Positions 1,408 through 48,964 of a stretch of 64,000 bases of DNA are shown one piece after another. This DNA comes from Schmidtea polychroa (Eukaryota), in assembly GCA_044892525.1 (NCBI GenBank), contig CM097885.1, positions 13,580,001 through 13,644,000 on the forward strand, written 5' to 3'. The position numbers and the translations under genes are program-made. Position 1 is the first letter of the stretch. Every line of letters begins with the position of its first letter. The notes beneath the pieces are model-generated. The model was not told where the DNA came from and did no database searches. It saw nothing but the letters and a program-made list of their open reading frames with translations.

Positions 1408-1413
1408 CTTGTT
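1..1413 (-). mobile_element. tRNA-Arg-targeting non-LTR retrotransposon, copy 1 (5' part; continues off the left window edge)
   Basis: Collinear with 47704-48924 (offset 47703) and with ORF1 of the full-length copy. Its 5' end, lacking about 13 nt, is joined to tRNA nt 1-58 at 1414. Confidence 0.93.
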
Positions 1414-4250: not shown

Positions 4251-4284
4251 TCCATTGCGCCACTGAGACTCTAAAGAAATCCAC
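3535..4284 (-). pseudogene. Diverged, frameshifted and truncated ORF1 of a sister subfamily, fused to tRNA nt 1-19 and spacer sequence
   Basis: The 249-aa ORF matches the ORF1 N-terminus (PDAMHQQDMH...NFEKRLD). A frameshift in an A-run continues it as the 69-aa ORF 3329-3538 (IPLTKIKESKNKYLKL). Confidence 0.85.
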
Positions 4285-6930
4285 TCACTTCACTTTATCT
4301 ACATTGGCATTTAAAAAATTGTCAATTTGACTCTTGTCAAGTCAAAACAAATTTCTCATGCTTTTGATATTCTTGATAGATTTCGTATGATTGCATTAGA
4401 AATTGCTTTGACGATTTTTCGTTGTTGAAAACAAAATTTTGTCAAAGACAATTCTGTAAAAATGCATCTCAGGTGGGACTCGAACCCACAACCTCCGGAT
4501 TAGAAGTCCGACGCGCTATCCATTGCGCCACTGAGACTCTAAAGAAATCCACTCACTTCACTTTATCTACATTGGCATTTAAAAAATTGTCAATTTGACT
4601 CTTGTCAAGTCAAAACAAATTTCTCATGCTTTTGATATTCTTGATAGATTTCGTATGATTGCATTAGAAATTGCTTTGACGATTTTTCGTTGTTGAAAAC
4701 AAAATTTTGTCAAAGACAATTCTGTAAAAATGCATCTCAGGTGGGACTCGAACCCACAACCTCCGGATTAGAAGTCCGACGCGCTATCCATTGCGCCACT
4801 GAGACTCTAAAGAAATCCACTCACTTCACTTTATCTACATTGGCATTTAAAAAATTGTCAATTTGACTCTTGTCAAGTCAAAACAAATTTCTCATGCTTT
4901 TGATATTCTTGATAGATTTCGTATGATTGCATTAGAAATTGCTTTGACGATTTTTCGTTGTTGAAAACAAAATTTTGTCAAAGACAATTCTGTAAAAATG
5001 CATCTCAGGTGGGACTCGAACCCACAACCTCCGGATTAGAAGTCCGACGCGCTATCCATTGCGCCACTGAGACTCTAAAGAAATCCACTCACTTCACTTT
5101 ATCTACATTGGCATTTAAAAAATTGTCAATTTGACTCTTGTCAAGTCAAAACAAATTTCTCATGCTTTTGATATTCTTGATAGATTTCGTATGATTGCAT
5201 TAGAAATTGCTTTGACGATTTTTCGTTGTTGAAAACAAAATTTTGTCAAAGACAATTCTGTAAAAATGCATCTCAGGTGGGACTCGAACCCACAACCTCC
5301 GGATTAGAAGTCCGACGCGCTATCCATTGCGCCACTGAGACTCTAAAGAAATCCACTCACTTCACTTTATCTACATTGGCATTTAAAAAATTGTCAATTT
5401 GACTCTTGTCAAGTCAAAACAAATTTCTCATGCTTTTGATATTCTTGATAGATTTCGTATGATTGCATTAGAAATTGCTTTGACGATTTTTCGTTGTTGA
5501 AAACAAAATTTTGTCAAAGACAATTCTGTAAAAATGCATCTCAGGTGGGACTCGAACCCACAACCTCCGGATTAGAAGTCCGACGCGCTATCCATTGCGC
5601 CACTGAGACTCTAAAGAAATCCACTCACTTCACTTTATCTACATTGGCATTTAAAAAATTGTCAATTTGACTCTTGTCAAGTCAAAACAAATTTCTCATG
5701 CTTTTGATATTCTTGATAGATTTCGTATGATTGCATTAGAAATTGCTTTGACGATTTTTCGTTGTTGAAAACAAAATTTTGTCAAAGACAATTCTGTAAA
5801 AATGCATCTCAGGTGGGACTCGAACCCACAACCTCCGGATTAGAAGTCCGACGCGCTATCCATTGCGCCACTGAGACTCTAAAGAAATCCACTCACTTCA
5901 CTTTATCTACATTGGAATTTAAAAAATTGTCAATTTGACTCTTGTCAAGTCAAAACAAATTTCTCATGCTTTTGATATTCTTGATAGATTTCGTATGATT
6001 GCATTAGAAATTGCTTTGACGATTTTTCGTTGTTGAAAACAAAATTTTGTCAAAGACAATTCTGTAAAAATGCATCTCAGGTGGGACTCGAACCCACAAC
6101 CTCCGGATTAGAAGTCCGATGCGCTATCCATTGCGCCACTGAGACTCTAAAGAAATCCACTCACTTCACTTTATCTACATTGGCATTTAAAAAATTGTCA
6201 ATTTGACTCTTGTCAAGTCAAAACAAATTTCTCATGCTTTTGATATTCTTGATAGATTTCGTATGATTGCATTAGAAATTGCTTTGACGATTTTTCGTTG
6301 TTGAAAACAAAATTTTGTCAAAGACAATTCTGTAAAAATGCATCTCAGGTGGGACTCGAACCCACAACCTCCGGATTAGAAGTCCGACGCGCTATCCATT
6401 GCGCCACTGAGACTCTAAAGAAATCCACTCACTTCACTTTATCTACATTGGCATTTAAAAAATTGTCAATTTGACTCTTGTCAAGTCAAAACAAATTTCT
6501 CATGCTTTTGATATTCTTGATAGATTTCGTATGATTGCATTAGAAATTGCTTTGACGATTTTTCGTTGTTGAAAACAAAATTTTGTCAAAGACAATTCTG
6601 TAAAAATGCATCTCAGGTGGGACTCGAACCCACAACCTCCGGATTAGAAGTCCGACGCGCTATCCATTGCGCCACTGAGACTCTAAAGAAATCCACTCAC
6701 TTCACTTTATCTACATTGGCATTTAAAAAATTGTCAATTTGACTCTTGTCAAGTCAAAACAAATTTCTCATGCTTTTGATATTCTTGATAGATTTCGTAT
6801 GATTGCATTAGAAATTGCTTTGACGATTTTTCGTTGTTGAAAACAAAATTTTGTCAAAGACAATTCTGTAAAAATGCATCTCAGGTGGGACTCGAACCCA
6901 CAACCTCCGGATTAGAAGTCCGACGCGCTA
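4251..6930 (-). tRNA. trnR-UCU: tRNA-Arg(UCU) tandem array block B: 9 complete genes plus interrupted ends
   Basis: Complete genes from 4465 every 268 bp to 6609. Fragment nt 1-19 at 4251-4269 and fragment nt 20-73 at 6877-6930. Confidence 0.96.
6911..6930. repeat. 20-bp target-site duplication, left copy (partner at 14418-14437)
   Basis: attagaagtccgacgcgcta (tRNA nt 20-39) flanks both ends of the element. Confidence 0.92.
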
Positions 6931-7279
6931 ATTAAACATTTATTAAATATAACAAATTTGAATATTGTTTTTAACAGATAATCAGCTCTACATGGAGTTG
7001 TCCATAAGCAAATATTCACATATTAACTTCATCTGCTGGAATCTCTGATCACTCTCATCGGATTTCATCATCCGGCATTGCGACTTGTCTTTGGTAGATT
7101 GAAGATCTAAATTCTTAAATTTGCTTTGTCGCAGAATATTTATCTCGAAAAAATGAAAGTTTCTTTAATAATTAGTTTATTTTTTTTAATGAAATTTAAA
7201 TTTGGTTTGTTTTAATAATCAAATTAATAAAAGTTTTAAATTTAATTATTTTCCTATGTTGAAAACCAATTTATTTTAA

Positions 7280-10200
7280 TTATTCAAAGTTTGGAAGCTT
7301 TCCATTACAATGAAAATACCAAATCTTTGCCGAATGTGCAATGTTACTTATTGCACATTCCTTCATCAAACCTTTGATTTTTGTTTGTGGAATTCCCATT
7401 TTTAATAAAAGATCAGAAGTTTTTGGTTCAATTGATCCCAAGGAACCCATGATGCATGTGAACAATTCAACTTTGTAATCAGGTTTAACTGTTTGTATAT
7501 CTGTTTTTAATTTATCATATTTTTCCATATTTAATTTGTCGACTCGCTCAAAATTAATTACAGAATCAATTGGACATTTCATGTCTACTAGTAAAATCGT
7601 TTTTCTCTCGGTATTGGTTATTAAAAGATCAACCCGTTCGTTGGAATTCGGTACAAGAGAACATTTATGATCAGTGACAACCAAGAGTTCAGGATTTTTA
7701 AGTGCATCTTTAATTTTTTCCAAGCAAGCATTATGTCTATTAGTTGCTAATGATTGATTGATTCTACAAGTTTGGAGTACATGTAAAATTGTCTCATCTT
7801 CAGATTTACACCTACGACAAAGGCGGTCTTCGCCAGTTTTATGTGGCTTTGCAAATGTAGAGAGTGTATTTGTTCGAGCTCGATGAATGAAATTCCATTC
7901 AAAGTCTGTCAAGTCACTACGAAAGATTAGTTTGTTGACAAATGGACAAAGTTTGAGAGCAGATACAATTAGATTACTTTGATTACTCTTCTCCCACTTT
8001 TCGAGATACGAATCTTGAAGAGCAGAATGGAGAATCTTTGATAATGCTTTTCTTAATTTTGGTAATAATATGCGAGTGCCAGTTAATGAAGTAGTGAGCC
8101 GAATCGAAGGATTTTGTTTGAAAGTTTCGAACGAAATTTTAATGTTGTGAACTCGATTGAAATATGCAATTGATGCACGCAATCGGTAGAAGCGAGTTTT
8201 ACTACCACTATGATTTAATTTGCTTTCTTTTCCATTAACCCATTCCAAGCTTTGACTGAGAGTTGGTTCTTTGATTCCGAGTCTTGGACTTGTCACAGAC
8301 AAGAGTGAAAAAGTGTTTATCTTTTTTGAATAGTCGCAAGTTGATGTTAGTAAACGGAAGAAGTAAACAATCGACTGTGTGTGATACTCATCAAGAAGGT
8401 CAATACAGCCAGCTCCACCATTTTCAGTGGCATTATAGAAATAACTTATTTCAGAGTGGTTTGGTAAATTTAATATTTTCCTCAAATGGCTCCTCAATTG
8501 GCTAGTACTATTTACATTTATCCTTGAGTTACTACTAGGAGATGTTAATGAACTAGTTTTAATTTCCCTAGTTCTAAATGGGAAAATAAGGCGCGAATGC
8601 AGGAAGATTTTATAAGCTTTGAGCTTTTGCCAACCATAGAGATCAGAGTTAGCAATCTTTTTAGTATCTTCAATGACTTGGCTGACGATTTCATAGGGAC
8701 TTTGATCATTATTATCACCTATTGGCACTCCTAAGTATTGGTAAAATTCATTACCAGCAAGTTTTTTAATTAAATCATTGTTGACAACGATTTCACTGAC
8801 CGTTTCTAGTTTTGGGTATTGTATATATGCACATTTTTCAGGGCGATATTCAAATCCAATATTATTGGCAGTTTTTACAGCTACGCCAATTAGCTTTTGG
8901 AGGTCAGTTGAGCTAGTTGCAATAAGTGCAATGTCATCAGCATAAGCTAACACTTGTACTTGAGAAGAGCCTATCATAAAAGGTGTAATGTTAGATGCGG
9001 TAATAGCTTCAAGAACCGGATTAATAGCTATTGCAAACAGAATCATAGAGATCGGGCAGCCTTGTTTTACACCTTTCTTTATTGGAATATTTGGTGTCTG
9101 CATTTTGTTACAGCGATAAAAAGAGCTCGTATCTGTATAAAGTAATTTCAGGATATTCACAAAGTTTTCACCAACGTTCATATGTCTTAACAATGTCCAC
9201 ATGTATTCGTGTGGAACACTTCCGAAAGCGTCTTTGATGTCAAGCCATGCTATTGCTAAAGGTGAAGATTTACTATATTTTGAATGCTCGACAATCGCAG
9301 AGAGAATTGAGTTGTGTTCAATACATCCTTCGTATTCTGAACCACCCTTTTGGCCAATATGCAGCAGATTATTTTCTTTAATCCATGAACTAAGGCGAGT
9401 TGCAAGAACTGAAGCGAAAACTTTGTAAATCACTGACAGTAATGCGATTGGTCGCCATGAAGATATTTTATGGTATTGGTCATTTTTATCAGGTTTCGGA
9501 ATTAATATTGTTTTAAAAGTTTTCCAACTTGTAGGGATAGATTTCAGTTGAATGACTTTGTTGAAAAGTAACGCTAGAAGCTTACAATCTGGATCAAGTA
9601 ACAGAAGATCTTTATAATATACATTATCAAGTCCGGGCGTAGAATTATCAGCTTCCTGAAGATTGGAAAGAATTTCCATTGGCGTAGTAATTTCTAATTC
9701 AAGTAAGCTTTTCGAGATTTTACTAAAGTTTAAAACGTTGTTCCAACTTCCAGGTAAAGTATCTTGATGAGTGAAAGTGTTTATAATTTCCTGAAATGGT
9801 GGTTCAGCTTTTTCGCTCTGATTACCTAAAATTCTGTTTACAGTCTTTTTCATATTTTTCAGAAATTCAGTAGAATTGTTGAATTTTTTAGGTTTATTGT
9901 GATTTTTCCCAAGATATGGCTCTCGAAATTCTTGATCCTGCAAATTTTCTAGATGAGGAATATTTGCCAGAATAGTAGAGATAATTTCATCAACATTAGA
10001 GTTAGACAATGTAGTTAAAAGCTCATCAATTCTATCTTTGCGTTGCTTCAAAGTTAGTTTCAAAGAATTAGCAATTTTCAATTTTCCACGTCTCTCAATT
10101 TTGACAATGTCATTATTATCAACTATTGGAACTAGAGAGTTGATTATTTCAGAAATTTCAGTCAAGTTAATATTTTCAAGAGATTTATCTTGAGTGTAGT

Positions 10201-11875
10201 TTCTGATAAATGCACAAATTAATATTTTGCTAAATAAACCAGAACCTCTTATATCATGTGGGCAGTGGCCAATTGTCATTGAACGCCCTTTACTTTGTCT
10301 TAGCTCATTAATTTTGAGCACAATGTTATAAGAGAAAGCTTTAGAAAACACATTCAAATCATTGGTCACTGGACTAAGAAAATAATGTTCGTCTGTGTCG
10401 TAATCAATTACCAACAGCAATTCATGGGCCTTGGGAGGAGAAATTATTGCAAAGATTACATTTGCCTTCATCATGTCCTCAATGTTTAAAAAATCATTTA
10501 AGTATTGAGTACAATCATCTGAAATTGCAGCAGACAAAGTTCTGTTTAGGAGAATATAATTATTCGATAATTTTAGGTTCATAAAATATTCATTAATAAT
10601 TTTATCAGTTATTTTACCGTTGATTAAATTAAAGTTGGGAGAAATTTCAATGCACGACTGAGATTTTAATTCACCAAGTGTATCATATACTTTATCATAA
10701 TCCAAGAGTCTTTCAAAGACAAATTTCTCAAAAAACACAATAAAGGAACTTGCGAAGTATTGATTGTCATTAGAGTGAAAGGAAGGATGCGAGATTCGAT
10801 GATCAGCTATGAATTTAATTTTTCGATTAAGACAAAATTGATTGAGATAATCGGTCATCTTTTCACCAATTTCAATCAATCTCTCATCAATATTTCTATA
10901 ATTAAAATCAAAAATGTAGCTACGGTTAAGTTTGCTGGAGTATATGAAAAGACACCAATCTTTAAATTTTGGAATGACACCAAGAATGTGATCGATTCCT
11001 TTAAATTGTTTAAAGGTGACATTGTCGGCTATAAAAGAGTCATTTTGCGCAATTAAATTGGATGTTAAATTGGCAGATAAAACCAAGATTTTAGAATTCT
11101 CTTTATAATATTTACCAATTAGTGATGACACACATGGCGCTTGGTTGTTGAGAATTTTAGTAATGTTTAAATTATTATTTGTAGTTTTAGATTTAGCGAT
11201 AGCCTTCTTGAAATTGATTGTTGCCATATTTAAATTGTTTTTAGCACCTCCAATTAAATTTGGTGCACCATTAACCAAGTGTTTCTGATATCGATGAACA
11301 TTTCGTCTTATTTCTTCAATGAATCCATCAGGAAAGATGTTCCAATCTTTACTGATTATCACTGCATAAGCGCAAGTGAATGGACCACAGTCAAAGTTGT
11401 TATTTTGATATTGAAGATTTGTATGCGGATGATATGACACTGCTATCTTGAGGTTGAAAAATCTATTTAGTGCAATATTCATTTTAAGAGCCATTTGTTT
11501 GTTGATTAGATTATTTCGGTTATTAAAAATTGGATCAATAAAGTAAGATGAATTTGATTTCTTACAGTATACAAAAAGAATCCAATGGGAATTGTTTATA
11601 TTAAGTGGACAAAAAATCATTTCAGCATTGGTAATTGACTGTGGAATTGCAACAATTTCTTCTTGAATATTCGAGCATAGAATATTAACGATGAAGCATT
11701 TGATGTATCCATGCATTGGATTGTCGATATGGTTTTCAAGATACCAATCAATATCATTATCAGAGAACCACATTTCAGGATCAAAATCGTCAATTGGTAA
11801 ATAGTAATTATCTATTGTGCTCTCTGCATCAGTCTCATTAGAGGGAACGGCAGACGCTTGAGCTGATGCAGGCAC
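7280..11875 (-). CDS. ORF2: Ulp1/C48-like cysteine protease, reverse transcriptase, CCHC knuckle and restriction-like endonuclease
   Basis: Protease motifs SHWIL..FIDP..QNNNFDCGPF. RT motifs WRPIAL, LDIKDAFGSV, GVKQGCPIS, YADD, YLGV. Zinc knuckle CRRCx8HxxxxC, RHN, and RLE motif RVDLLI...LVDMKCP. No ATG at the start of the frame (GTG). Confidence 0.96.
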   Translation of the reverse strand: MPASAQASAVPSNETDAESTIDNYYLPIDDFDPEMWFSDNDIDWYLENHIDNPMHGYIKCFIVNILCSNIQEEIVAIPQSITNAEMIFCPLNINNSHWILFVYCKKSNSSYFIDPIFNNRNNLINKQMALKMNIALNRFFNLKIAVSYHPHTNLQYQNNNFDCGPFTCAYAVIISKDWNIFPDGFIEEIRRNVHRYQKHLVNGAPNLIGGAKNNLNMATINFKKAIAKSKTTNNNLNITKILNNQAPCVSSLIGKYYKENSKILVLSANLTSNLIAQNDSFIADNVTFKQFKGIDHILGVIPKFKDWCLFIYSSKLNRSYIFDFNYRNIDERLIEIGEKMTDYLNQFCLNRKIKFIADHRISHPSFHSNDNQYFASSFIVFFEKFVFERLLDYDKVYDTLGELKSQSCIEISPNFNLINGKITDKIINEYFMNLKLSNNYILLNRTLSAAISDDCTQYLNDFLNIEDMMKANVIFAIISPPKAHELLLVIDYDTDEHYFLSPVTNDLNVFSKAFSYNIVLKINELRQSKGRSMTIGHCPHDIRGSGLFSKILICAFIRNYTQDKSLENINLTEISEIINSLVPIVDNNDIVKIERRGKLKIANSLKLTLKQRKDRIDELLTTLSNSNVDEIISTILANIPHLENLQDQEFREPYLGKNHNKPKKFNNSTEFLKNMKKTVNRILGNQSEKAEPPFQEIINTFTHQDTLPGSWNNVLNFSKISKSLLELEITTPMEILSNLQEADNSTPGLDNVYYKDLLLLDPDCKLLALLFNKVIQLKSIPTSWKTFKTILIPKPDKNDQYHKISSWRPIALLSVIYKVFASVLATRLSSWIKENNLLHIGQKGGSEYEGCIEHNSILSAIVEHSKYSKSSPLAIAWLDIKDAFGSVPHEYMWTLLRHMNVGENFVNILKLLYTDTSSFYRCNKMQTPNIPIKKGVKQGCPISMILFAIAINPVLEAITASNITPFMIGSSQVQVLAYADDIALIATSSTDLQKLIGVAVKTANNIGFEYRPEKCAYIQYPKLETVSEIVVNNDLIKKLAGNEFYQYLGVPIGDNNDQSPYEIVSQVIEDTKKIANSDLYGWQKLKAYKIFLHSRLIFPFRTREIKTSSLTSPSSNSRINVNSTSQLRSHLRKILNLPNHSEISYFYNATENGGAGCIDLLDEYHTQSIVYFFRLLTSTCDYSKKINTFSLLSVTSPRLGIKEPTLSQSLEWVNGKESKLNHSGSKTRFYRLRASIAYFNRVHNIKISFETFKQNPSIRLTTSLTGTRILLPKLRKALSKILHSALQDSYLEKWEKSNQSNLIVSALKLCPFVNKLIFRSDLTDFEWNFIHRARTNTLSTFAKPHKTGEDRLCRRCKSEDETILHVLQTCRINQSLATNRHNACLEKIKDALKNPELLVVTDHKCSLVPNSNERVDLLITNTERKTILLVDMKCPIDSVINFERVDKLNMEKYDKLKTDIQTVKPDYKVELFTCIMGSLGSIEPKTSDLLLKMGIPQTKIKGLMKECAISNIAHSAKIWYFHCNGKLPNFE

Positions 11876-11884
11876 ACATCTTCA
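11816..11884 (-). promoter_or_regulatory. Candidate UGA readthrough signal: stop codon, 5-nt spacer, stem-loop
   Basis: Minus strand TGA AGATG TGTGC-CTGCATCAG-CTCA...TGAG-A-CTGATGCAG-AGA-GCACA. The stem is unchanged in all three copies. Confidence 0.65.
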
Positions 11885-14419
11885 TTTGGTCTTCGATGAT
11901 TGTTTTTTTAGTGTCGTAGCTCGCGATTTTGTAGCAGATTTCTTTGTGAGAGGTTCTTCAATAGTCTCTGTAGGGATTGGATTGACTTGACTAGAATTTG
12001 ATTGATCAGTGGAAATGGCGTCAAATAAACAGTTTTCACAAATGTTAACATTCATTCCTTCTCTGGCCAAAATGAATTTTTCAAGGATGTTATTACATTT
12101 CATACAGTTGATTTCTTCTATGACAACGATAGGGTCCAAAACATCATTGTTGGTAGTTGGATTGTCAATATCGCAATTGGTTTCGGCTGTTTCTTTTACA
12201 TTGATTTGGTTAACAATTAATTTTAATTTAGTTATTATTAGAGAAATTTGCTGGCACATCTCTGGAGTGCAATATTTATTACTTGTTTCAAACAGACGGA
12301 ATTTCTGGTTTTTATCCATCAATTTCTTTGTATCTCTCAACAAAAAATAAATAAATCGCTTCGCTTTAACGCCATATGTGTCATCTATTAATTTCTCATT
12401 ATTAATTGTTTCCATTAATTTAGTAAGGATATTATTGTTTTGAAATTTATTGGGAAAGGTTTCGTCAACAAGATCAAGAAAACTATTAACACATGCTATA
12501 GTTTCTGGAGATATTACGTTATGGATCTTTTTAATTTCCCCAGAAATTTTCCATTGTTTTAATTTCAAGAGTTTTTCTTGACAATTTGTATAATAAAAAG
12601 ACGAGTTTGGAATCCTTTGAATAATTTCAGAAGCCCAACTTTCAAAATTTTCAAGCGAGAGAAGAGAAAGATCTTCAAGCGAACAGAGTGAATTTAATAA
12701 ACAACAATTTCGAATATAGTTCACAACATAATCAGAATAAGTTTGATTTTGAGAAAATTTTAAGGATCCAACCAAACCCAAGTAATTTAGATAAAATACT
12801 ATCTCAACAATTTTAAAGTGACAATCTGTTTTAGTCAAAATTGATTTTAATTCAACATCATCTTTTGCCATGTTTATTAGATCAAATAACCCAAGATTAA
12901 ACATTATGTCAGGAAATGAATTGGGTTCTTTGTGTTTAATATCAGATTGAAAGAATTTACCCCCTTCAAAAAAGATATCTTCAGGAAACACATTATCGAT
13001 TTTTAAAGATTCAATCAACTTAATAATTGAAGATGATTTTGAGTCAGGATTCTCAACAAACATAATCTCTTTAAGAGAAGGATAAGATGAGTAGAGAGAT
13101 TTCATCTGGGTACGAGAGAGTTCGGAAAATGTTGATGATGTGAAATCGTTATTTATCTTGGATGTTATATTTGGGTTTGTCAAATCTAACAATATAAACT
13201 CACCCTTTTGATATTTAATTTTTGATTTTACCAGATAATTTGGGAGTTTATCTTGTTTAATCAAAGAAGAAATGATTTTATTAATTTTATTTTCTCTATG
13301 ATTACAATCTGTAATAGAAACTGTTTCAGAAAGCTCAGGCGAAAGATTAAATAAAAATCTTTTAATTGAAGTTGGTGCTGCTATATAATTAGAAAAATTA
13401 GGAAAAGTCTTTACAATATTATGTTCAGACAAAAAAATTTTCTTTTTATAAGAGACAGGTTTAACGGTTGAGTTTTCATTTAAAAAACTACTTATATGAA
13501 ACTCAACACAGAAATTAAAATTCCTATAAAGAAAACATTTAAAATTATCTAAACCTAAAGGATTGGTATTAAATTCCTCCCCAGATAAAACTTTATTTAA
13601 TTTTAAATATTTATTCTTTGATTCCTTAATTTTAGTTAAAGGAATCAAAGTTGGAAACTTATTATAGAGCTGTTTTCGCTCTTTTTTTGTTAAAATACGA
13701 ATAAAAGTCTTAAAATCAAAACTTTTATTACTTATTATCGGTTTGGAAACAAACACTTTAGGATTGTCAAAACGTGTATTATTATTTATTGAAATTTTAA
13801 AATTATCGAAATTTGCACTATCCTTATTTAAATCGTTATTCACATTAATTTTTAGATTTTTATCAGAAGTTGAATTATTAACATTACAAGAATTTTTATT
13901 TAAAGGAAATTTATCAAACTCTATATTAAAATCCTTATTGACAATTGATGAATTATTAAAATTACAATTATCTAAATTTGAAATTTCATTAATTTTATTA
14001 TCTTTAAAATGGAAAAAATCTTTATTTAAAGAAAATTTATTGAAATTATTTAAATTATTAAAGAAACCCTCAAAATTCAAAGATAAACACTCTAACCTTT
14101 CAAGCTTCTTTGAGAATGAAATCTCCATTAAATCCAAACGTTTCTCGAAATTCTGAAACTGATTTTCCGGCTTGTTTGGAAGGACATTGTTCATTGAATT
14201 CTCCATGGAAGGCATATGAAATCCAGCTTTGAATTGACTGAAGAAATCCAAAAGAGCTTGATTTGATTGCAATTGATATTGGAATAATTTCTGAAGTTTC
14301 TTCATATCAATTGCATAATTACATAATCCTTCTGCAGTCGTTGATTGAACTCCAGTGTGCATATCTTGTTGATGCATTGCGTCAGGCGATTGCATCATCT
14401 TGTTTTCTCCGTTAGTCAT
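11882..14419 (-). CDS. ORF1, 845 aa, unknown function (Asn/Lys-rich; CxxC...CxxC motif near the C-terminus)
   Basis: Long ORF conserved in copies 1, 3 and 4. Contains CMKC-x16-CENC and a basic C-terminal tail. The first ATG straddles the tRNA/element junction. Confidence 0.88.
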   Translation of the reverse strand: MTNGENKMMQSPDAMHQQDMHTGVQSTTAEGLCNYAIDMKKLQKLFQYQLQSNQALLDFFSQFKAGFHMPSMENSMNNVLPNKPENQFQNFEKRLDLMEISFSKKLERLECLSLNFEGFFNNLNNFNKFSLNKDFFHFKDNKINEISNLDNCNFNNSSIVNKDFNIEFDKFPLNKNSCNVNNSTSDKNLKINVNNDLNKDSANFDNFKISINNNTRFDNPKVFVSKPIISNKSFDFKTFIRILTKKERKQLYNKFPTLIPLTKIKESKNKYLKLNKVLSGEEFNTNPLGLDNFKCFLYRNFNFCVEFHISSFLNENSTVKPVSYKKKIFLSEHNIVKTFPNFSNYIAAPTSIKRFLFNLSPELSETVSITDCNHRENKINKIISSLIKQDKLPNYLVKSKIKYQKGEFILLDLTNPNITSKINNDFTSSTFSELSRTQMKSLYSSYPSLKEIMFVENPDSKSSSIIKLIESLKIDNVFPEDIFFEGGKFFQSDIKHKEPNSFPDIMFNLGLFDLINMAKDDVELKSILTKTDCHFKIVEIVFYLNYLGLVGSLKFSQNQTYSDYVVNYIRNCCLLNSLCSLEDLSLLSLENFESWASEIIQRIPNSSFYYTNCQEKLLKLKQWKISGEIKKIHNVISPETIACVNSFLDLVDETFPNKFQNNNILTKLMETINNEKLIDDTYGVKAKRFIYFLLRDTKKLMDKNQKFRLFETSNKYCTPEMCQQISLIITKLKLIVNQINVKETAETNCDIDNPTTNNDVLDPIVVIEEINCMKCNNILEKFILAREGMNVNICENCLFDAISTDQSNSSQVNPIPTETIEEPLTKKSATKSRATTLKKQSSKTK

Positions 14420-17400
14420 TAGAAGTCCGACGCGCTATCCATTGCGCCACTGAGACTCTAAAGAAATCCACTCACTTCACTTTATCTACATTGGCATTTA
14501 AAAAATTGTCAATTTGACTCTTGTCAAGTCAAAACAAATTTCTCATGCTTTTGATATTCTTGATAGATTTCGTATGATTGCATTAGAAATTGCTTTGACG
14601 ATTTTTCGTTGTTGAAAACAAAATTTTGTCAAAGACAATTCTGTAAAAATGCATCTCAGGTGGGACTCGAACCCACAACCTCCGGATTAGAAGTCCGACG
14701 CGCTATCCATTGCGCCACTGAGACTCTAAAGAAATCCACTCACTTCACTTTATCTACATTGGCATTTAAAAAATTGTCAATTTGACTCTTGTCAAGTCAA
14801 AACAAATTTCTCATGCTTTTGATATTCTTGATAGATTTCGTATGATTGCATTAGAAATTGCTTTGACGATTTTTCGTTGTTGAAAACAAAATTTTGTCAA
14901 AGACAATTCTGTAAAAATGCATCTCAGGTGGGACTCGAACCCACAACCTCCGGATTAGAAGTCCGACGCGCTATCCATTGCGCCACTGAGACTCTAAAGA
15001 AATCCACTCACTTCACTTTATCTACATTGGCATTTAAAAAATTGTCAATTTGACTCTTGTCAAGTCAAAACAAATTTCTCATGCTTTTGATATTCTTGAT
15101 AGATTTCGTATGATTGCATTAGAAATTGCTTTGACGATTTTTCGTTGTTGAAAACAAAATTTTGTCAAAGACAATTCTGTAAAAATGCATCTCAGGTGGG
15201 ACTCGAACCCACAACCTCCGGATTAGAAGTCCGACGCGCTATCCATTGCGCCACTGAGACTCTAAAGAAATCCACTCACTTCACTTTATCTACATTGGCA
15301 TTTAAAAAATTGTCAATTTGACTCTTGTCAAGTCAAAACAAATTTCTCATGCTTTTGATATTCTTGATAGATTTCGTATGATTGCATTAGAAATTGCTTT
15401 GACGATTTTTCGTTGTTGAAAACAAAATTTTGTCAAAGACAATTCTGTAAAAATGCATCTCAGGTGGGACTCGAACCCACAACCTCCGGATTAGAAGTCC
15501 GACGCGCTATCCATTGCGCCACTGAGACTCTAAAGAAATCCACTCACTTCACTTTATCTACATTGGCATTTAAAAAATTGTCAATTTGACTCTTGTCAAG
15601 TCAAAACAAATTTCTCATGCTTTTGATATTCTTGATAGATTTCGTATGATTGCATTAGAAATTGCTTTGACGATTTTTCGTTGTTGAAAACAAAATTTTG
15701 TCAAAGACAATTCTGTAAAAATGCATCTCAGGTGGGACTCGAACCCACAACCTCCGGATTAGAAGTCCGACGCGCTATCCATTGCGCCACTGAGACTCTA
15801 AAGAAATCCACTCACTTCACTTTATCTACATTGGCATTTAAAAAATTGTCAATTTGACTCTTGTCAAGTCAAAACAAATTTCTCATGCTTTTGATATTCT
15901 TGATAGATTTCGTATGATTGCATTAGAAATTGCTTTGACGATTTTTCGTTGTTGAAAACAAAATTTTGTCAAAGACAATTCTGTAAAAATGCATCTCAGG
16001 TGGGACTCGAACCCACAACCTCCGGATTAGAAGTCCGACGCGCTATCCATTGCGCCACTGAGACTCTAAAGAAATCCACTCACTTCACTTTATCTACATT
16101 GGCATTTAAAAAATTGTCAATTTGACTCTTGTCAAGTCAAAACAAATTTCTCATGCTTTTGATATTCTTGATAGATTTCGTATGATTGCATTAGAAATTG
16201 CTTTGACGATTTTTCGTTGTTGAAAACAAAATTTTGTCAAAGACAATTCTGTAAAAATGCATCTCAGGTGGGACTCGAACCCACAACCTCCGGATTAGAA
16301 GTCCGACGCGCTATCCATTGCGCCACTGAGACTCTAAAGAAATCCACTCACTTCACTTTATCTACATTGGCATTTAAAAAATTGTCAATTTGACTCTTGT
16401 CAAGTCAAAACAAATTTCTCATGCTTTTGATATTCTTGATAGATTTCGTATGATTGCATTAGAAATTGCTTTGACGATTTTTCGTTGTTGAAAACAAAAT
16501 TTTGTCAAAGACAATTCTGTAAAAATGCATCTCAGGTGGGACTCGAACCCACAACCTCCGGATTAGAAGTCCGACGCGCTATCCATTGCGCCACTGAGAC
16601 TCTAAAGAAATCCACTCACTTCACTTTATCTACATTGGAATTTAAAAAATTGTCAATTTGACTCTTGTCAAGTCAAAACAAATTTCTCATGCTTTTGATA
16701 TTCTTGATAGATTTCGTATGATTGCATTAGAAATTGCTTTGACGATTTTTCGTTGTAGAAAACAAAATTTTGTCAAAGACAATTCTGTAAAAATGCATCT
16801 CAGGTGGGACTCGAACCCACAACCTCCGGATTAGAAGTCCGACGCGCTATCCATTGCGCCACTGAGACTCTAAAGAAATCCACTCACTTCACTTTATCTA
16901 CATTGGCATTTAAAAAATTGTCAATTTGACTCTTGTCAAGTCAAAACAAATTTCTCATGCTTTTGATATTCTTGATAGATTTCGTATGATTGCATTAGAA
17001 ATTGCTTTGACGATTTTTCGTTGTTGAAAACAAAATTTTGTCAAAGACAATTCTGTAAAAATGCATCTCAGGTGGGACTCGAACCCACAACCTCCGGATT
17101 AGAAGTCCGACGCGCTATCCATTGCGCCACTGAGACTCTAAAGAAATCCACTCACTTCACTTTATCTACATTGGCATTTAAAAAATTGTCAATTTGACTC
17201 TTGTCAAGTCAAAACAAATTTCTCATGCTTTTGATATTCTTGATAGATTTCGTATGATTGCATTAGAAATTGCTTTGACGATTTTTCGTTGTTGAAAACA
17301 AAATTTTGTCAAAGACAATTCTGTAAAAATGCATCTCAGGTGGGACTCGAACCCACAACCTCCGGATTAGAAGTCCGACGCGCTATCCATTGCGCCACTG

Positions 17401-19261
17401 AGACTCTAAAGAAATCCACTCACTTCACTTTATCTACATTGGCATTTAAAAAATTGTCAATTTGACTCTTGTCAAGTCAAAACAAATTTCTCATGCTTTT
17501 GATATTCTTGATAGATTTCGTATGATTGCATTAGAAATTGCTTTGACGATTTTTCGTTGTTGAAAACAAAATTTTGTCAAAGACAATTCTGTAAAAATGC
17601 ATCTCAGGTGGGACTCGAACCCACAACCTCCGGATTAGAAGTCCGACGCGCTATCCATTGCGCCACTGAGACTCTAAAGAAATCCACTCACTTCACTTTA
17701 TCTACATTGGCATTTAAAAAATTGTCAATTTGACTCTTGTCAAGTCAAAACAAATTTCTCATGCTTTTGATATTCTTGATAGATTTCGTATGATTGCATT
17801 AGAAATTGCTTTGACGATTTTTCGTTGTTGAAAACAAAATTTTGTCAAAGACAATTCTGTAAAAATGCATCTCAGGTGGGACTCGAACCCACAACCTCCG
17901 GATTAGAAGTCCGACGCGCTATCCATTGCGCCACTGAGACTCTAAAGAAATCCACTCACTTCACTTTATCTACATTGGCATTTAAAAAATTGTCAATTTG
18001 ACTCTTGTCAAGTCAAAACAAATTTCTCATGCTTTTGATATTCTTGATAGATTTCGTATGATTGCATTAGAAATTGCTTTGACGATTTTTCGTTGTTGAA
18101 AACAAAATTTTGTCAAAGACAATTCTGTAAAAATGCATCTCAGGTGGGACTCGAACCCACAACCTCCGGATTAGAAGTCCGACGCGCTATCCATTGCGCC
18201 ACTGAGACTCTAAAGAAATCCACTCACTTCACTTTATCTACATTGGCATTTAAAAAATTGTCAATTTGACTCTTGTCAAGTCAAAACAAATTTCTCATGC
18301 TTTTGATATTCTTGATAGATTTCGTATGATTGCATTAGAAATTGCTTTGACGATTTTTCGTTGTTGAAAACAAAATTTTGTCAAAGACAATTCTGTAAAA
18401 ATGCATCTCAGGTGGGACTCGAACCCACAACCTCCGGATTAGAAGTCCGACGCGCTATCCATTGCGCCACTGAGACTCTAAAGAAATCCACTCACTTCAC
18501 TTTATCTACATTGGCATTTAAAAAATTGTCAATTTGACTCTTGTCAAGTCAAAACAAATTTCTCATGCTTTTGATATTCTTGATAGATTTCGTATGATTG
18601 CATTAGAAATTGCTTTGACGATTTTTCGTTGTTGAAAACAAAATTTTGTCAAAGACAATTCTGTAAAAATGCATCTCAGGTGGGACTCGAACCCACAACC
18701 TCCGGATTAGAAGTCCGACGCGCTATCCATTGCGCCACTGAGACTCTAAAGAAATCCACTCACTTCACTTTATCTACATTGGCATTTAAAAAATTGTCAA
18801 TTTGACTCTTGTCAAGTCAAAACAAATTTCTCATGCTTTTGATATTCTTGATAGATTTCGTATGATTGCATTAGAAATTGCTTTGACGATTTTTCGTTGT
18901 TGAAAACAAAATTTTGTCAAAGACAATTCTGTAAAAATGCATCTCAGGTGGGACTCGAACCCACAACCTCCGGATTAGAAGTCCGACGCGCTATCCATTG
19001 CGCCACTGAGACTCTAAAGAAATCCACTCACTTCACTTTATCTACATTGGCATTTAAAAAATTGTCAATTTGACTCTTGTCAAGTCAAAACAAATTTCTC
19101 ATGCTTTTGATATTCTTGATAGATTTCGTATGATTGCATTAGAAATTGCTTTGACGATTTTTCGTTGTTGAAAACAAAATTTTGTCAAAGACAATTCTGT
19201 AAAAATGCATCTCAGGTGGGACTCGAACCCACAACCTCCGGATTAGAAGTCCGACGCGCTA
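14418..19261 (-). tRNA. trnR-UCU: tRNA-Arg(UCU) tandem array block C: 17 complete genes plus interrupted ends
   Basis: Complete genes from 14652 every 268 bp. Fragment nt 1-39 at 14418-14456 and fragment nt 20-73 at 19208-19261. Confidence 0.96.
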
Positions 19262-22200
19262 ATAAAACATTTATTAAATATAACAAATTTGAATATTGAT
19301 TTTAACAGATAATCAGCTCTACATGGAGTTGTCCATAAGCAAATATTCACATATTTGCTTCATCTGCTGGAATCTCTGATCACTCTCTTCGGATTTCATC
19401 ATCCGGCATTGCGACTTGTCTTTGGTAGATTGAAGATCTAAATTCTTAAATTTGCTTTGTCGCAGAATATTTATCTCGAAAAAATGAAAGTCTCTTTAAT
19501 AATTAGTTTATATTTTTTAATGAAATTTAAATTTAGTTTGTTTTAATAATCAAATTAATAAAAGTTTTAAATTTAATTATATTCCTATGTTGAAAACCAA
19601 TTTATTTTAATTATTCAAAGTTTGGAAGCTTTCCATTACAATGAAAATACCAAATCTTTGCCGAATGTGCAATGTTACTTATTGCACATTCCTTCATCAA
19701 ACCTTTGATTTTTGTTTGTGGAATTCCCATTTTTAATAAAAGATCAGAAGTTTTTGGTTCAATTGATCCCAAGGAACCCATGATGCATGTAAACAATTCA
19801 ACCTTGTAATCAGGTTTAACTGTTTGTATATCTGATTTTAATTTATCATATTTTTCTAAATTTAATTTGTCGACTCGCTCAAAATTAATTACAGAATCAA
19901 TTGGACATTTCATGTCTACTAGCAGAATCGTCTTTTTCTCGGTATTTGTTATTAAAAGATCAACCCGTTCGTTGGAATTTGGTACAAGAGAACATTTGTG
20001 ATCAGTGACAACCAAGAGTTCAGGATTTTTAAGCGCATCTTTAATTTTTTCTAAGCAAGCATTATGTCGATTAGTTGCTAATGATTGATTGATTCTACAA
20101 GTTTGGAGTACATGTAAAATTGTCTCATCTTCAGATTTACATCTACGACAAAGGCGGTCTTCGCCAGTTTTATGTGGCTTAGCAAATGTAGAGAGTGTAT
20201 TTGTTCGAGCTCGATGAATGAAATTCCATTCAAAGTCTGTCAAGTCACTACGGAAAATTAGTTTGTTGACAAATGGACAAAGTTTGAGAGCAGACACAAT
20301 TAGATTACTTTGATTACTTTTCTCCCACTTTTCGAGATACGAATCTTGAAGAACAGAATGGAGAATCTTTGATAATGCTTTTCTTAATTTTGGTAATAAT
20401 ATGCGAGTGCCAGTTAATGAAGTAGTGAGTCGAATCGAAGGATTTTGTTTGAAAGTTTCGAACGAAATTTTAATGTTGTGAACTCGATTGAAATATGCAA
20501 TTGATGCACGCAATCGGTAGAAGCGAGTTTTACTACCACTATGATTTAATTTGCTTTCTTTTCCATTAACCCATTCCAAGCTTTGACTGAGAGTTGGTTC
20601 TTTGATTCCGAGTCTTGGACTTGTCACAGACAAGAGTGAAAAAGTGTTTATCTTTTTTGAGTAGTCGCAAGTTGATGTTAGTAAACGGAAAAAGTAAACA
20701 ATCGACTGTGTGTGATACTCATCAAGAAGGTCAATACAGCCAGCTCCACCATTTTCAGTGGCATTATAGAAATAACTTATTTCAGAGTGGTTTGGTAAAT
20801 TTAATATTTTCCTCAAATGGCTCCTCAATTGGCTAGTACTATTTACATTTATCCTTGAGTTACTACTAGGAGCTGTTAATGAACTAGTTTTAATTTCCCT
20901 AGTTCTAAATGGGAAAATAAGGCGCGAATGCAGGAAGATTTTATAAGCTTTGAGCTTTTGCCAACCATAAAGATCAGAGTTTGCAATCTTTTTAGTATCT
21001 TCAATGACTTGGCTGACGATTTCATAGGGACTTTGATCATTATTATCACCTATTGGCACTCCTAAGTATTGGTAAAATTCATTACCAGCAAGTTTTTTAA
21101 TTAAATCATTGTTGACAACGATTTCACTGACCGTTTCTAGTTTTGGGTATTGTATATATGCACATTTTTCAGGGCGATATTCAAATCCAATATTATTGGC
21201 AGTTTTTACAGCTACATCAATTAGCTTTTGGAGGTCAGTTGAGCTAGTTGCAATAAGTGCAATGTCATCAGCATAAGCTAACACTTGTACTTGAGAAGAG
21301 CCTATCATAAAAGGTGTAATGTTAGATGCGGTAATAGCTTCAAGAACCGGATTAATAGCTATTGCAAACAGAATCATAGAGATCGGGCAGCCTTGTTTTA
21401 CACCTTTCTTAATTGGAATATTCGGTGTCTGCATTTTGTTGCAGCGATAAAAAGAGCTCGTATCTGTATAAAGTAATTTCAGGATATTCACAAAGTTTTC
21501 ACCAACGTTCATATGTCTTAACAATGTCCACATGTATTCGTGTGGAACACTTCCGAAAGCGTCTTTGATGTCAAGCCAGGCTATTGCTAAAGGTGAAGAT
21601 TTACTATATTTTGAATGCTCGACAATCGCAGAGAGAATTGAGTTGTGTTCAATACATCCTTCGTATTCTGAGCCACCCTTTTGGCCAATATGCAGTAGAT
21701 TATTTTCTTTAATCCATAAACTAAGACGAGTTGCAAGAACTGAAGCGAAAACTTTGTAAATCACTGACAGTAATGCGATTGGTCGCCATGAAGATACTTT
21801 ATGGTATTGGTCATTTTTATCAGGTTTCGGAATTAATATTGTTTTAAAAGTTTTCCAACTTGTAGGGATAGATTTCAGTTGAATGATTTTGTTGAAAAGT
21901 AACGTTAGAAGCTTACAATCTGGATCGAGTAACAGAAGATCTTTATAATATACATTATCAAGTCCGGGCGTAGAATTATCAGCTTCCTGAAGATTGGAAA
22001 GAATTTCCATTGGCGTAGTAATTTCTAATTCAAGTAAGCTTTTCGAGATTTTACTAAAGTTTAAAACGTTGTTCCAACTTCCAGGTAAAGTATCTTGATG
22101 AGTGAAAGTGTTTATAATTTCCTGAAATGGTGGTTCAGCTTTTTCGCTCTGATTACCTAAAATTCTGTTTACAGTCTTTTTCATATTTTTCAGAAATTCA

Positions 22201-24786
22201 GTAGAATTGTTGAATTTTTTAGGTTTATTGTGATTTTTCCCAAGATATGGCTCTCGAAATTCTTGATCCTGCAAATTTTCTAGATGAGGAATATTTGCCA
22301 GAATAGTAGAGATAATTTCATCAACATTAGAGTTAGACAATGTAGTTAAAAGCTCATCAATTCTATCTTTGCGTTGCTTCAAAGTTAGTTTCAAAGAATT
22401 AGCAATTTTCAATTTTCCACGTCTCTCAATTTTGACAATGTCATTATTATCAACTATTGGAACTAGAGAGTTGATTATTTCAGAAATTTCAGTCAAGTTA
22501 ATATTTTCAAGAGATTTATCTTGAGTGTAGTTTCTGATAAATGCACAAATTAATATTTTGCTAAATAAACCAGAACCTCTTATATCATGTGGGCAGTGGC
22601 CAATTGTCATTGAACGCCCTTTACTTTGTCTTAGCTCATTAATTTTGAGCACAATGTTATAAGAGAAAGCTTTAGAAAACACATTCAAATCATTGGTCAC
22701 TGGACTAAGAAAATAATGTTCGTCTGTGTCGTAATCAATTACCAACAGCAATTCATGGGCCTTGGGAGGAGAAATTATTGCAAAGATTACATTTGCCTTC
22801 ATCATGTCCTCAATGTTTAAAAAATCATTTAAGTATTGAGTACAATCATCTGAAATTGCAGCAGACAAAGTTCTGTTTAGGAGAATATAATTATTCGATA
22901 ATTTTAGGTTCATAAAATATTCATTAATAATTTTATCAGTTATTTTACCGTTGATTAAATTAAAGTTGGGAGAAATTTCAATGCACGACTGAGATTTTAA
23001 TTCACCAAGTGTATCATATACTTTATCATAATCCAAGAGTCTTTCAAAGACAAATTTCTCAAAAAACACAATAAAGGAACTTGCGAAGTATTGATTGTCA
23101 TTAGAGTGAAAGGAAGGATGCGAGATTCGATGATCAGCTATGAATTTAATTTTTCGATTAAGACAAAATTGATTGAGATAATCGGTCATCTTTTCACCAA
23201 TTTCAATCAATCTCTCATCAATATTTCTATAATTAAAATCAAAAATGTAGCTACGGTTAAGCTTACTGGAGTATATGAAAAGACACCAATCTTTAAATTT
23301 TGGAATGACACCAAGAATGTGATCGATTCCTTTAAATTGTTTAAAGGTGACATTGTCGGCTATAAAAGAGTCATTTTGCGCAATTAAATTGGATGTTAAA
23401 TTGGCAGATAAAACCAAGATTTTAGAATTCTCTTTATAATATTTATCAATTAGTGATGACACACATGGCGCTTGGTTGTTGAGAACTTTAGTAATGTTTA
23501 AATTATTATTTGTAGTTTTAGATTTAGCGATAGCCTTCTTGAAATTGATTGTTGCCATATCTAAATTGTTTTTAGCACCTCCAATTAAATTTGGTGAACC
23601 ATTAACCAAGTGTTTCTGATATCGATGAACATTTCGTCTTATTTCTTCAATGAATCCATCAGGAAAGCTGTTCCAATCTTTACTGATTATCACTGCATAA
23701 GCGCAAGTGAATGGACCACAGTCAAAATTGTTATTTTGATATTGAAGATTTGTATGCGGATGATATGACACTGCTATCTTGAGGTTGAAAAATCTATTTA
23801 GTGCAATATTCATTTTAAGAGCCATTTGTTTGTTGATTAGATTATTTCTGTTATTAAAAATTGGATCAATAAAGTAAGATGAATTCGATTTCTTACAGTA
23901 TACAAAAAGAATCCAATGGGAATTGTTTATATTAAGTGGACAAAAAATCATTTCAGCATTGGTAATTGACTGTGGAATTGCAACAATTTCTTCTTGAATA
24001 TTCGAGCATAGAATATTAACGATGAAACACTTGATGTATCCATGCATTGGATTGTCGATATGGTTTTCAAGATACCAATCAATATCATTATCAGAGAACC
24101 ACATTTCACTATCAAAATCGTCAATTGTTAAATAGTAATTATCTATTGTGCTCTCTGCATCAGTCTCATTAAAGGGAACGGCAGACGCTTGAGCTGATGC
24201 AGGCACACATCTTCATTTGGATTTCGATGATTGTTTTTTTAGTGTCGTAGTTCGCGATTTTGTACCAGATTTCTTTGTGAGAGGTTCTTCAATAGTCTCT
24301 GTAGGGATTGGATTGACTTGACTAGAATTTGATTGATCAGTGGAAATGGCGTCAAATAAACAGTTTTCACAAATGTTAACATTCATTCCTTCTCTGACCA
24401 AAATGAATTTTTCAAGGATGTTATTACATTTCATACAGTTGATTTCTTCAATGACAACGATAGGGTCCATAACATTACTGTTGGTAGTTTGATTGTCAAT
24501 ATCGCAATTGGTTTCGGCTGTTTCTGTTACATTGATTTGGTTAACAATTAATTTTAATTTAGTTATTATTAGAGAAATTTGCTGGCACATCTCTGGAGTG
24601 CAATATTTATTGCTTGTTTCAAACAGACGGAATTTCTGGTTTTTATCCTTAAATTTCTTTGTATCTCTCAACAAAAAATAAATAAATCGCTTCGCTTTAA
24701 CGCCATATGTGTCATCTATTAATTTCTCATTATTAATTGTTTCCATTAATTTAGTAAGGATATTATTGTTTTGAAATTTATTGGGA
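19262..24786 (-). mobile_element. Retrotransposon copy 3, 5'-truncated within ORF1
   Basis: Same 3' junction (tRNA nt 20). The 5' junction joins the tRNA T-arm through a 5-bp microhomology (tggga, 24782-24786), giving a 40-45 bp target duplication. Confidence 0.95.
19611..24206 (-). CDS. ORF2 (Ulp1-RT-CCHC-RLE), intact, 1531 aa
   Basis: Same motifs as 7280-11875 with few amino-acid differences. Confidence 0.95.
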   Translation of the reverse strand: MPASAQASAVPFNETDAESTIDNYYLTIDDFDSEMWFSDNDIDWYLENHIDNPMHGYIKCFIVNILCSNIQEEIVAIPQSITNAEMIFCPLNINNSHWILFVYCKKSNSSYFIDPIFNNRNNLINKQMALKMNIALNRFFNLKIAVSYHPHTNLQYQNNNFDCGPFTCAYAVIISKDWNSFPDGFIEEIRRNVHRYQKHLVNGSPNLIGGAKNNLDMATINFKKAIAKSKTTNNNLNITKVLNNQAPCVSSLIDKYYKENSKILVLSANLTSNLIAQNDSFIADNVTFKQFKGIDHILGVIPKFKDWCLFIYSSKLNRSYIFDFNYRNIDERLIEIGEKMTDYLNQFCLNRKIKFIADHRISHPSFHSNDNQYFASSFIVFFEKFVFERLLDYDKVYDTLGELKSQSCIEISPNFNLINGKITDKIINEYFMNLKLSNNYILLNRTLSAAISDDCTQYLNDFLNIEDMMKANVIFAIISPPKAHELLLVIDYDTDEHYFLSPVTNDLNVFSKAFSYNIVLKINELRQSKGRSMTIGHCPHDIRGSGLFSKILICAFIRNYTQDKSLENINLTEISEIINSLVPIVDNNDIVKIERRGKLKIANSLKLTLKQRKDRIDELLTTLSNSNVDEIISTILANIPHLENLQDQEFREPYLGKNHNKPKKFNNSTEFLKNMKKTVNRILGNQSEKAEPPFQEIINTFTHQDTLPGSWNNVLNFSKISKSLLELEITTPMEILSNLQEADNSTPGLDNVYYKDLLLLDPDCKLLTLLFNKIIQLKSIPTSWKTFKTILIPKPDKNDQYHKVSSWRPIALLSVIYKVFASVLATRLSLWIKENNLLHIGQKGGSEYEGCIEHNSILSAIVEHSKYSKSSPLAIAWLDIKDAFGSVPHEYMWTLLRHMNVGENFVNILKLLYTDTSSFYRCNKMQTPNIPIKKGVKQGCPISMILFAIAINPVLEAITASNITPFMIGSSQVQVLAYADDIALIATSSTDLQKLIDVAVKTANNIGFEYRPEKCAYIQYPKLETVSEIVVNNDLIKKLAGNEFYQYLGVPIGDNNDQSPYEIVSQVIEDTKKIANSDLYGWQKLKAYKIFLHSRLIFPFRTREIKTSSLTAPSSNSRINVNSTSQLRSHLRKILNLPNHSEISYFYNATENGGAGCIDLLDEYHTQSIVYFFRLLTSTCDYSKKINTFSLLSVTSPRLGIKEPTLSQSLEWVNGKESKLNHSGSKTRFYRLRASIAYFNRVHNIKISFETFKQNPSIRLTTSLTGTRILLPKLRKALSKILHSVLQDSYLEKWEKSNQSNLIVSALKLCPFVNKLIFRSDLTDFEWNFIHRARTNTLSTFAKPHKTGEDRLCRRCKSEDETILHVLQTCRINQSLATNRHNACLEKIKDALKNPELLVVTDHKCSLVPNSNERVDLLITNTEKKTILLVDMKCPIDSVINFERVDKLNLEKYDKLKSDIQTVKPDYKVELFTCIMGSLGSIEPKTSDLLLKMGIPQTKIKGLMKECAISNIAHSAKIWYFHCNGKLPNFE

Positions 24787-41644: not shown

Positions 41645-41991
41645 ATAAAACATTTATTAAATATAACAAATTTGAATATTGTTTTTAACAGATAATCAGC
41701 TCTACATGGAGTTGTCCATAAGCAAATATTCACATATTTCTTCATCTGCTGGAATCTCTGATCAATTTCATCGGAATTTATTATCCGGCATTGCGACTTG
41801 TCTTTGGTAGATTGAAGTTCTAAATTAATAAATTTGCTCTGTCGCAGAATATTTATCTCCAAAAAATGAAAGTTTCTCTAATAATTAGTTTATTTTTTTA
41901 ATGAAATATAAATTTAGTTTGTTTAAATAATCAAATTAATAAAAGTTTTAAATTTAATTATTTATTTAAGTTGAAAACCAATTTATTTTAA

Positions 41992-46587: not shown

Positions 46588-46593
46588 ACATCT

Positions 46594-48918: not shown

Positions 48919-48964
48919 GGAAGGTCATTCTCAAGGTCATGTGACTCATACTATGACGCATCCA

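Follow-up and report, generated by a model that had tools for sequence, protein, structure and literature searches.

Spacers of tandem tRNA arrays as probable 5′ leaders of a non-LTR retrotransposon family without a 5′ untranslated region in Schmidtea polychroa

The window analyzed in this study is a 64,000-nucleotide (nt) stretch of Schmidtea polychroa DNA (GenBank assembly GCA_044892525.1, contig CM097885.1, positions 13,580,001 to 13,644,000), taken from a 781-Mb genome with four large contigs. It contains 45 tRNA-Arg(TCT) genes arrayed as a 268-bp unit, and the array is broken by a 7.49-kb element without long terminal repeats (non-LTR) on the minus strand (14417–6931). The junctions of this element and its relatives show that the family is without a 5′ untranslated region (UTR) of its own. 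Its RNA probably begins 13–50 nt upstream of the first open reading frame (ORF1), in the spacer of the parent tRNA array, most likely by nearby RNA polymerase II (Pol II) initiation. The source arrays are mainly those of tRNA-Asn and tRNA-Met, not the tRNA-Arg array of the window.

Copies of the element were collected with two sequence patterns. The first pattern, near the element start, matched 92 places, of which 87 were fetched and five were read from the window, and the second added nine. The 101 copies include 88 of a young type, 11 of an old type (ATGAACAAG), and two that are truncated. None of them carries element-specific DNA upstream of the ATG, which agrees with the original prediction that almost no 5′ UTR is present. 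Among the young copies, element-specific homology begins at the G of this ATG (one copy has T at that base). In 86 of the 88, AAT is joined to GACTAAC; the other two are a copy with AAT followed by T and a copy at window position 58841 that lacks AAT. The G is preceded by AAT in 10 of the 11 old copies as well. Copies do share sequence farther upstream, as they would if a common 5′ UTR existed, but the shared part is tRNA-Asn or tRNA-Met spacer. A 5′ UTR that was apparent at the first loci was ruled out in this way, because the sequence proved to be tRNA-Asn spacer. Spliced-leader addition was likewise set aside: the 101 copies hold no shared unassigned upstream sequence, although no direct search for a spliced-leader sequence was made.

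The earlier expectation that the element leaves no room for a ribozyme is also supported, in that no Rfam ribozyme family is found near its 5′ end. Rfam families of the hepatitis delta virus (HDV) type are absent around the Asn junction even at E ≤ 10. A custom HDV descriptor, used without a positive control, gave no matches. There is no UTR to hold such a ribozyme, and overlap with ORF1 is still conceivable.

At the window junction, the minus strand reads through nt 1–39 of a tRNA-Arg(TCT) gene (14456–14418) and continues with GACTAAC from 14417. As noted previously, an ATG spans the join (14419–14417) and opens an ORF of 845 amino acids (aa), with ATGATG in frame 21 nt later. The features of this region are as follows.

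14457–19261, minus strand: upstream tRNA-Arg(TCT) tandem array, 268-bp unit
14418–14456, minus strand: 5′ part of the target tRNA-Arg(TCT), nt 1–39; nt 20–39 (14437–14418) are the upstream duplication copy
14418–14420, minus strand: AAT microhomology, common to tRNA nt 37–39 and the template ...AAAAT-G
11882–14419, minus strand: ORF1, 845 aa, opening at the element 5′ end; second in-frame ATG at 14398
6877–6930, minus strand: 3′ portion of the tRNA-Arg target, from nt 20 on; 6930–6911 is the downstream duplication copy, with no differences from the upstream copy

The original prediction took the G at 14417 to be the true first base of the element and proposed that insertion behind nt 38–39 of tRNA-Arg had created the start codon. 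Element-specific homology does start at this G in the young copies, and the AT before the element matches host DNA at Asn, Met, and Arg junctions. However, AAT precedes the G across Asn, Met, iMet, Cys, Ile, His, and non-array flanks. The AAT is therefore carried by the element's template, because it is found in many unrelated flanks. It is also present where no local source supplies it, both in copies with a leader (see below) and in old copies, for which the Arg spacer offers no such T. An AAT that ends three unrelated hosts is just what microhomology to a template-borne AAT predicts. Moreover, a leader from the tRNA-Arg anticodon loop occurs in none of the 101 copies elsewhere. A start codon built from the target tRNA thus appears largely refuted for the window junction, and we consider it very improbable. 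Because the tRNA is not the only possible source of the AT, the window junction is best described as a 3-nt AAT microhomology that closes a 17–20 bp target duplication, with a start codon that is template-borne. At the source junctions, host spacer likewise agrees with AT (Asn) or with all of ATGA (Met). The Met spacer at the junction is AAAATGAACAAG, which is identical to the 5′ end of the old subfamily, and the ATG may be of ancient host origin.

Two further window copies had been cited in support of the 5′ end. Copy 1 is about 13 nt short as described, with tRNA nt 58 joined to the element 13 nt downstream. For the 58841 copy, homology does begin at the same point, but the boundary can be fixed only to within 3 nt. 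Ahead of this copy lie ∼620 nt from the end of ORF2 and the 3′ UTR of the element itself, reading GAC at the join. It lends the 5′ end little support because this GAC is also element 3′ UTR sequence.

The spacers themselves are most informative where they are out of place. In 24 of the 101 copies, which represent 12 junction types, a misplaced piece of Asn, Met, or Arg spacer 13–50 nt long stands before ORF1. Each piece is in the sense orientation and ends exactly at the donor junction, as it does directly upstream of the join in the donor array. Where scorable, the leaders are joined to the local flank through microhomologies of 2–4 nt. The 12 types are listed by donor.

Asn leader, 18 nt: in a Cys array
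Asn leader, 19 nt: in an Ile array
Asn leader, 21 nt: in a Met array, two copies
Asn leader, 19 nt: in a Met array, inverted
Asn leader, 21 nt: in a flank without array assignment
Asn leader, ∼23 nt: in an iMet array
Asn leader, 46 nt: in a Met array
Asn leader, 50 nt: in an iMet array, four copies
Asn leader, 13 nt: in two rearranged old copies
Met leader, 13 nt: in a His array, two copies
Met leader, 35 nt: in a partial tRNA-like flank
Arg-spacer leader, 45 nt: exactly at the nick, in seven old copies, three of them in the window

No leader is longer than 50 nt and none reaches the donor tRNA, even though the 7.5-kb element is usually copied whole. For this reason, we infer that the RNA starts 13–50 nt upstream. 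Five Asn leaders fit a single start 18 nt before the G (P = 0.0002–0.004 in a post hoc uniform-start simulation), although an annealing bias could also cluster the Asn starts. Since pieces of spacer travel with the element, its transcripts likely begin in host array DNA, and the earlier suggestion that transcription comes from the array is borne out to this extent. The candidate RNA starts lie 18 and 46–50 nt before the element in the Asn spacer and 13 and 35 nt before it in the Met spacer.

In their presumed home arrays, the copies have uniform junctions. Asn-array DNA is joined in 33 copies, and all 33 have the spacer junction at unit position 200. For Met arrays, 36 of 40 copies are joined at unit position 208. 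The remaining eight of the 101 copies carry 0–8 nt, and the window copy at 14417, with AAT only, is among them. At the other end, 90 of 103 3′ ends are located at the D-loop site (tRNA nt ∼20) of seven tRNA arrays, and the targets comprise Asn, Met, iMet, Arg, Cys, Ile, and His tRNAs together with tRNA-like repeats. Of the copies in Asn and Met arrays, 68 of 71 are full-length, compared with 11 of 15 for the other tRNA arrays and two of 13 elsewhere, with four ends at locus edges set aside. The Met and Asn arrays (C2 87.77–88.17 Mb; C3 22.94–23.10 Mb; G000) hold one element per 8–12 kb. In those of C2 and C3, often only one to six tRNA units separate copies, and the load of full-length copies is very high. 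At L055/L056, head-to-head copies flank one tRNA-Met unit.

A single insertion that was amplified within each array would also yield a fixed junction. In a tree of 76 full-length bodies, however, the arrays are interleaved, and the bodies are block mosaics that are strongly recombinant. The fixed Asn and Met junctions are therefore not the result of simple amplification of one insertion. Bodies in Asn arrays differ from each other by a median of 72 single-nucleotide polymorphisms (SNPs), whereas one Asn/Met pair differs by 1, and the window copy differs by 10 from its nearest relative, an Asn copy.

These patterns can be accommodated by the following sequence of events. The element would integrate by target-primed reverse transcription from a nick before tRNA nt 20, and the complementary DNA (cDNA) would end in the borrowed leader. 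Within a home array (Asn or Met), annealing of the leader to its counterpart in the spacer would restore an identical junction and, along with it, an identical start region. In a foreign array, the leader would remain unpaired and would either be copied in whole or in part (5′ transduction) or be lost through pairing of a few cDNA bases. The window junction would represent the leader-loss case, in which a template AAT paired with the AAT at tRNA-Arg nt 37–39 to yield the 17–20 bp duplication.

Known elements offer precedents for this scheme. R1A elements use an APE endonuclease. In the melanogaster group of Drosophila, the R1A transcript has been inferred to carry 6–28 nt of upstream 28S sequence that becomes visible off target; at home this leader anneals to give a precise junction with a target deletion, and otherwise a duplication and misplaced host sequence are formed (PMC2718515). 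The host-leader logic and the misplaced sequence at off-target insertions are the same here. In contrast, R1A as described there has one fixed donor in 28S rDNA, whereas the window family draws on several spacers of RNA polymerase III (Pol III) arrays and the leader is its only 5′ UTR. In many R2 elements, an HDV-like ribozyme cuts upstream in the 28S sequence, and the 5′ host sequence is proposed to form a heteroduplex that gives uniform junctions, whose variants can be propagated (PMC3774820). The window family resembles both systems in having upstream host sequence off target (24/101 copies) and uniform home junctions. It differs from R2, as portrayed in that report, in that R2 carries a ribozyme within its 5′ UTR and is cotranscribed with rRNA, whereas the window element has two ORFs, lacks a UTR, and shows no detected ribozyme. 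Thus the host-leader mechanism itself is already known, and the apparent novelty is a borrowed, exchangeable tRNA-spacer leader in an R5/LIN-like family. A literature search that did not extend to Repbase reports or to subscription papers on R5/NeSL-1 found no spacer-derived leaders in R5/LIN elements.

The leaders could instead be true RNA 5′ ends that arise by processing, with a long read-through transcript cut, for instance by RNase Z on the 3′ side of the preceding tRNA or by an unrecognized ribozyme, and trimmed to 13–50 nt. R2 frees its RNA from a host cotranscript in this manner (PMC3774820), an intact tRNA lies ∼125–135 nt upstream in the home arrays, and the preferred Asn start position could be a cut site. 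However, if cleavage took place at the tRNA 3′ end, leaders of ∼125 nt would be expected, and the longest of the 12 is 50 nt. An RNase Z cut as the direct 5′ end was rejected for this reason. The starts also fall in three unrelated spacers, and the Asn junction gave no HDV-type match. We regard processing as unlikely on balance. Read-through by Pol III was rejected, and transcription by this polymerase is unlikely, because the element contains 18 runs of five or more T residues and T-runs also follow the Asn, Met, and Arg tRNAs.

Another explanation is that the leaders are products of events at the DNA level, either ectopic recombination or conversion, or jumps of reverse transcriptase onto array DNA, that carried junction pieces from one array to another, with an RNA start that this explanation leaves unspecified. 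The strongly recombinant bodies are consistent with such exchange, and an SNP at position +8 tracks the array more than the body. Moreover, partial units upstream of insertions do not resemble the downstream unit more closely than random units do (Met units are identical in 9/33 versus 46/224 comparisons), which indicates that exchange after insertion is common. On the other hand, leader copies in Cys, Ile, His, iMet, and Met arrays keep precise D-loop 3′ ends and are therefore marked as products of retrotransposition. Their leaders are always the sequence directly upstream of the donor junction, in the sense orientation, and are joined to nonhomologous DNA by 2–4 nt. An origin of the leaders at the DNA level is accordingly doubtful, and we give it only a small chance.

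Junction offsets range from 17 to ∼230 bp, and most array cases fail a duplication test. One near-full-length copy (L118; G000:C1, ∼267.05–267.06 Mb), which starts at an internal ATG at nt 42, is flanked by a perfect 147-bp target duplication at a non-tandem tRNA-like site. It resembles R9 of Adineta vaga, for which a 126-bp stagger is cited in PMC6895275, but R9 differs from the array copies with their variable offsets. Long target duplications as a general rule were rejected for the arrays, where partial units match no better.

Several observations weigh against a start of the RNA in the array spacer, or limit how far it can be generalized. It rests on genomic DNA junctions rather than on RNA 5′ ends, and reading by eye gave neither a convincing initiator nor a convincing downstream promoter motif. 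Leader starts differ by donor (13, 18–23, 35, and 45–50 nt), and five copies with short leaders (3–8 nt) are uninformative. The census consists of copies that match either of the two 5′ patterns, so diverged copies that fail both are outside it. Copies that share an array cannot be counted as independent: copy numbers are inflated by conversion and unequal exchange, both of which are clearly at work, and these processes could fix a junction and purge truncated copies. The contrast in full-length copies between array classes is inflated for the same reason. Finally, a sister family retains ∼48 nt of its own UTR, also present in copies in Ser arrays, and total UTR loss is thus not lineage-wide. 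Contigs of one run that was guessed to be RNA cover 28 of 30 element bins, the first not being among them; they cannot show the start and were not used.

The sister family was found in a tRNA-Phe array. Its ORF2 is 54% and 50% identical to that of the window family, and its ORF1 38–40%. The sequence upstream of this family is partly tRNA-Val array spacer (739 pattern matches). Among eight sister starts, two are in Val arrays, five lie in Phe arrays and carry a Val-spacer piece of 30 or 47 nt, and one has Phe spacer. An origin of the 48-nt segment in another array was rejected, as its 43 matches are kilobases apart and the loci that were read are element copies. Judged from these junctions, leader capture is common to both families, and complete UTR loss is not. 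Four sister copies (L183, L187–L189) carry a 317-nt inverted duplication of their own 5′ end.

A broader scheme can be put forward tentatively. The element, lacking both promoter and UTR, might use tRNA-array spacers as exchangeable promoters, with each permissive landing becoming a self-renewing source that rebuilds its own junction. Donors would have switched repeatedly (Asn, Met, and Arg; Val and Phe in the sister family), and the start codon would perhaps derive from the Met spacer (AAAATGAACAAG). This possibility falls short of an even chance in our estimation. How early-branching non-LTR elements without the R2 ribozyme are transcribed and complete their 5′ ends is a largely open question in the field. 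Targeting of many arrays amounts to a natural experiment, in which each foreign insertion would record the 5′ end of the template RNA. The results suggest that a 7.5-kb parasite RNA can have its start region in spacers of Pol III genes. They also suggest that full-length insertion may be favored by a short leader that matches the host, which bears on the engineering of site-specific retrotransposons.

The remainder of the window element has the following organization.

11800–11884, minus strand: single TGA separating ORF1 from ORF2, which share one frame; a predicted hairpin comes after it (−26.4 kcal/mol, z −3.0)
7280–11773, minus strand: ORF2, 1497 aa from the first ATG, with a protease of Ulp1 type (PF02902), a reverse transcriptase (PF00078), a putative zinc knuckle at the C terminus, and a tail that by eye is like that of restriction-like endonuclease (RLE) proteins
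6931–7279, minus strand: 3′ UTR without poly(A); its end lies at the nick that precedes tRNA nt 20

The ORF1 product has no Pfam match at the cut-off and no database homolog at E ≤ 0.001. ORF2 matches PF00078 (E = 8e-30) and, upstream of it at aa 46–142, PF02902 (E = 2e-09). At its C terminus, zf-RVT scores below the cut-off, CCHC and D..D motifs are visible by eye, and no RLE model is matched. The sister family has the same stop between its ORFs, followed by RCVPAS (L169–L171, alongside window 11884–11800), which suggests programmed read-through of the TGA.

The closest database matches are 60–40% identical. The reverse transcriptase of non-LTR type, the Ulp1-like protease, and sequence-specific insertion in multicopy RNA genes are traits of R5/LIN elements in the NeSL clade, and we class the window family as R5/LIN-like by resemblance rather than by phylogeny. 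A Ulp1-like protease upstream of reverse transcriptase is described for NeSL and Utopia-1_TSP, and LIN15_SM and LIN25_SM of Schmidtea mediterranea are tRNA-targeting members of the R5/LIN lineage in the NeSL clade (PMC4640811). According to that description, both are planarian non-LTR elements inserted in the sense orientation into tRNA genes near the D-arm, as in the window. LIN15_SM has the same tRNA-Arg(TCT) target sequence; the target tRNA is identical to S. mediterranea tRNA-Arg-TCT as shown in S6 Fig of PMC4640811, whereas the 3′ flank differs. For LIN15_SM, the one 5′ boundary listed there falls within the T-arm, on the downstream side of the 3′ boundary, and two window copies show the same arrangement. 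In contrast, its 3′ boundary is at nt 24, before GCGTC of tRNA-Arg, rather than at nt 20, and its 3′ terminus is unlike that of the window element when compared through the published description, not the Repbase sequence (PMC4640811). The window family also differs from the published LIN15_SM and LIN25_SM targets in the range it strikes, from seven tRNA types to tRNA-like repeats.

Other members of the family in the window are listed below.

1–1413, minus strand: copy 1, whose 5′ end falls 13 nt short and meets tRNA nt 58, with a 39-bp duplication; 3′ end beyond the window (L035)
3401–4251, minus strand, also at ∼32298 and ∼38697: older-subfamily 5′ fragment, with tRNA-Arg nt 1–19, 45 nt of Arg spacer (unit 131–175), and ATGAACAAG
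19262–24786, minus strand: 5′-truncated copy that begins at element nt 1965, with a microhomology at its join within the tRNA T-arm
58533–59461, minus strand: decayed composite, with the ORF2 end and partial 3′ UTR (59461–58839) fused via GAC to element nt 1–309

An additional copy at 41645–48924 is without its first 207 nt and borders an unrelated repeat of AAGGTCA-rich 31-bp units (48924–48960, minus strand). Outside the arrays, insertions occur in short tRNA-like sequences within other repeats (L090, L118, L125, L157, L159, L162–L166). By eye, these sequences have an A-box-like motif, GGTTCAAATCC, and a T-run, and they are not called by ARAGORN. The partial tRNA-like flank at L123 was called by neither ARAGORN nor Rfam. 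At 29370–29888 and 35769–36287 (minus strand), an ORF is fused to an ORF1 fragment of the element family. It resembles a C2H2 finger and a Myb-like domain, both below cut-offs, and both fusions are contained in a 6.4-kb duplicated block (∼26–32 and 32–38.7 kb). On the plus strand, a 156-aa ORF at 51339–51809 matches the adenovirus endoprotease family PF00770 (E = 5e-05), and we presume that it might belong to a Polinton/Maverick-like element.

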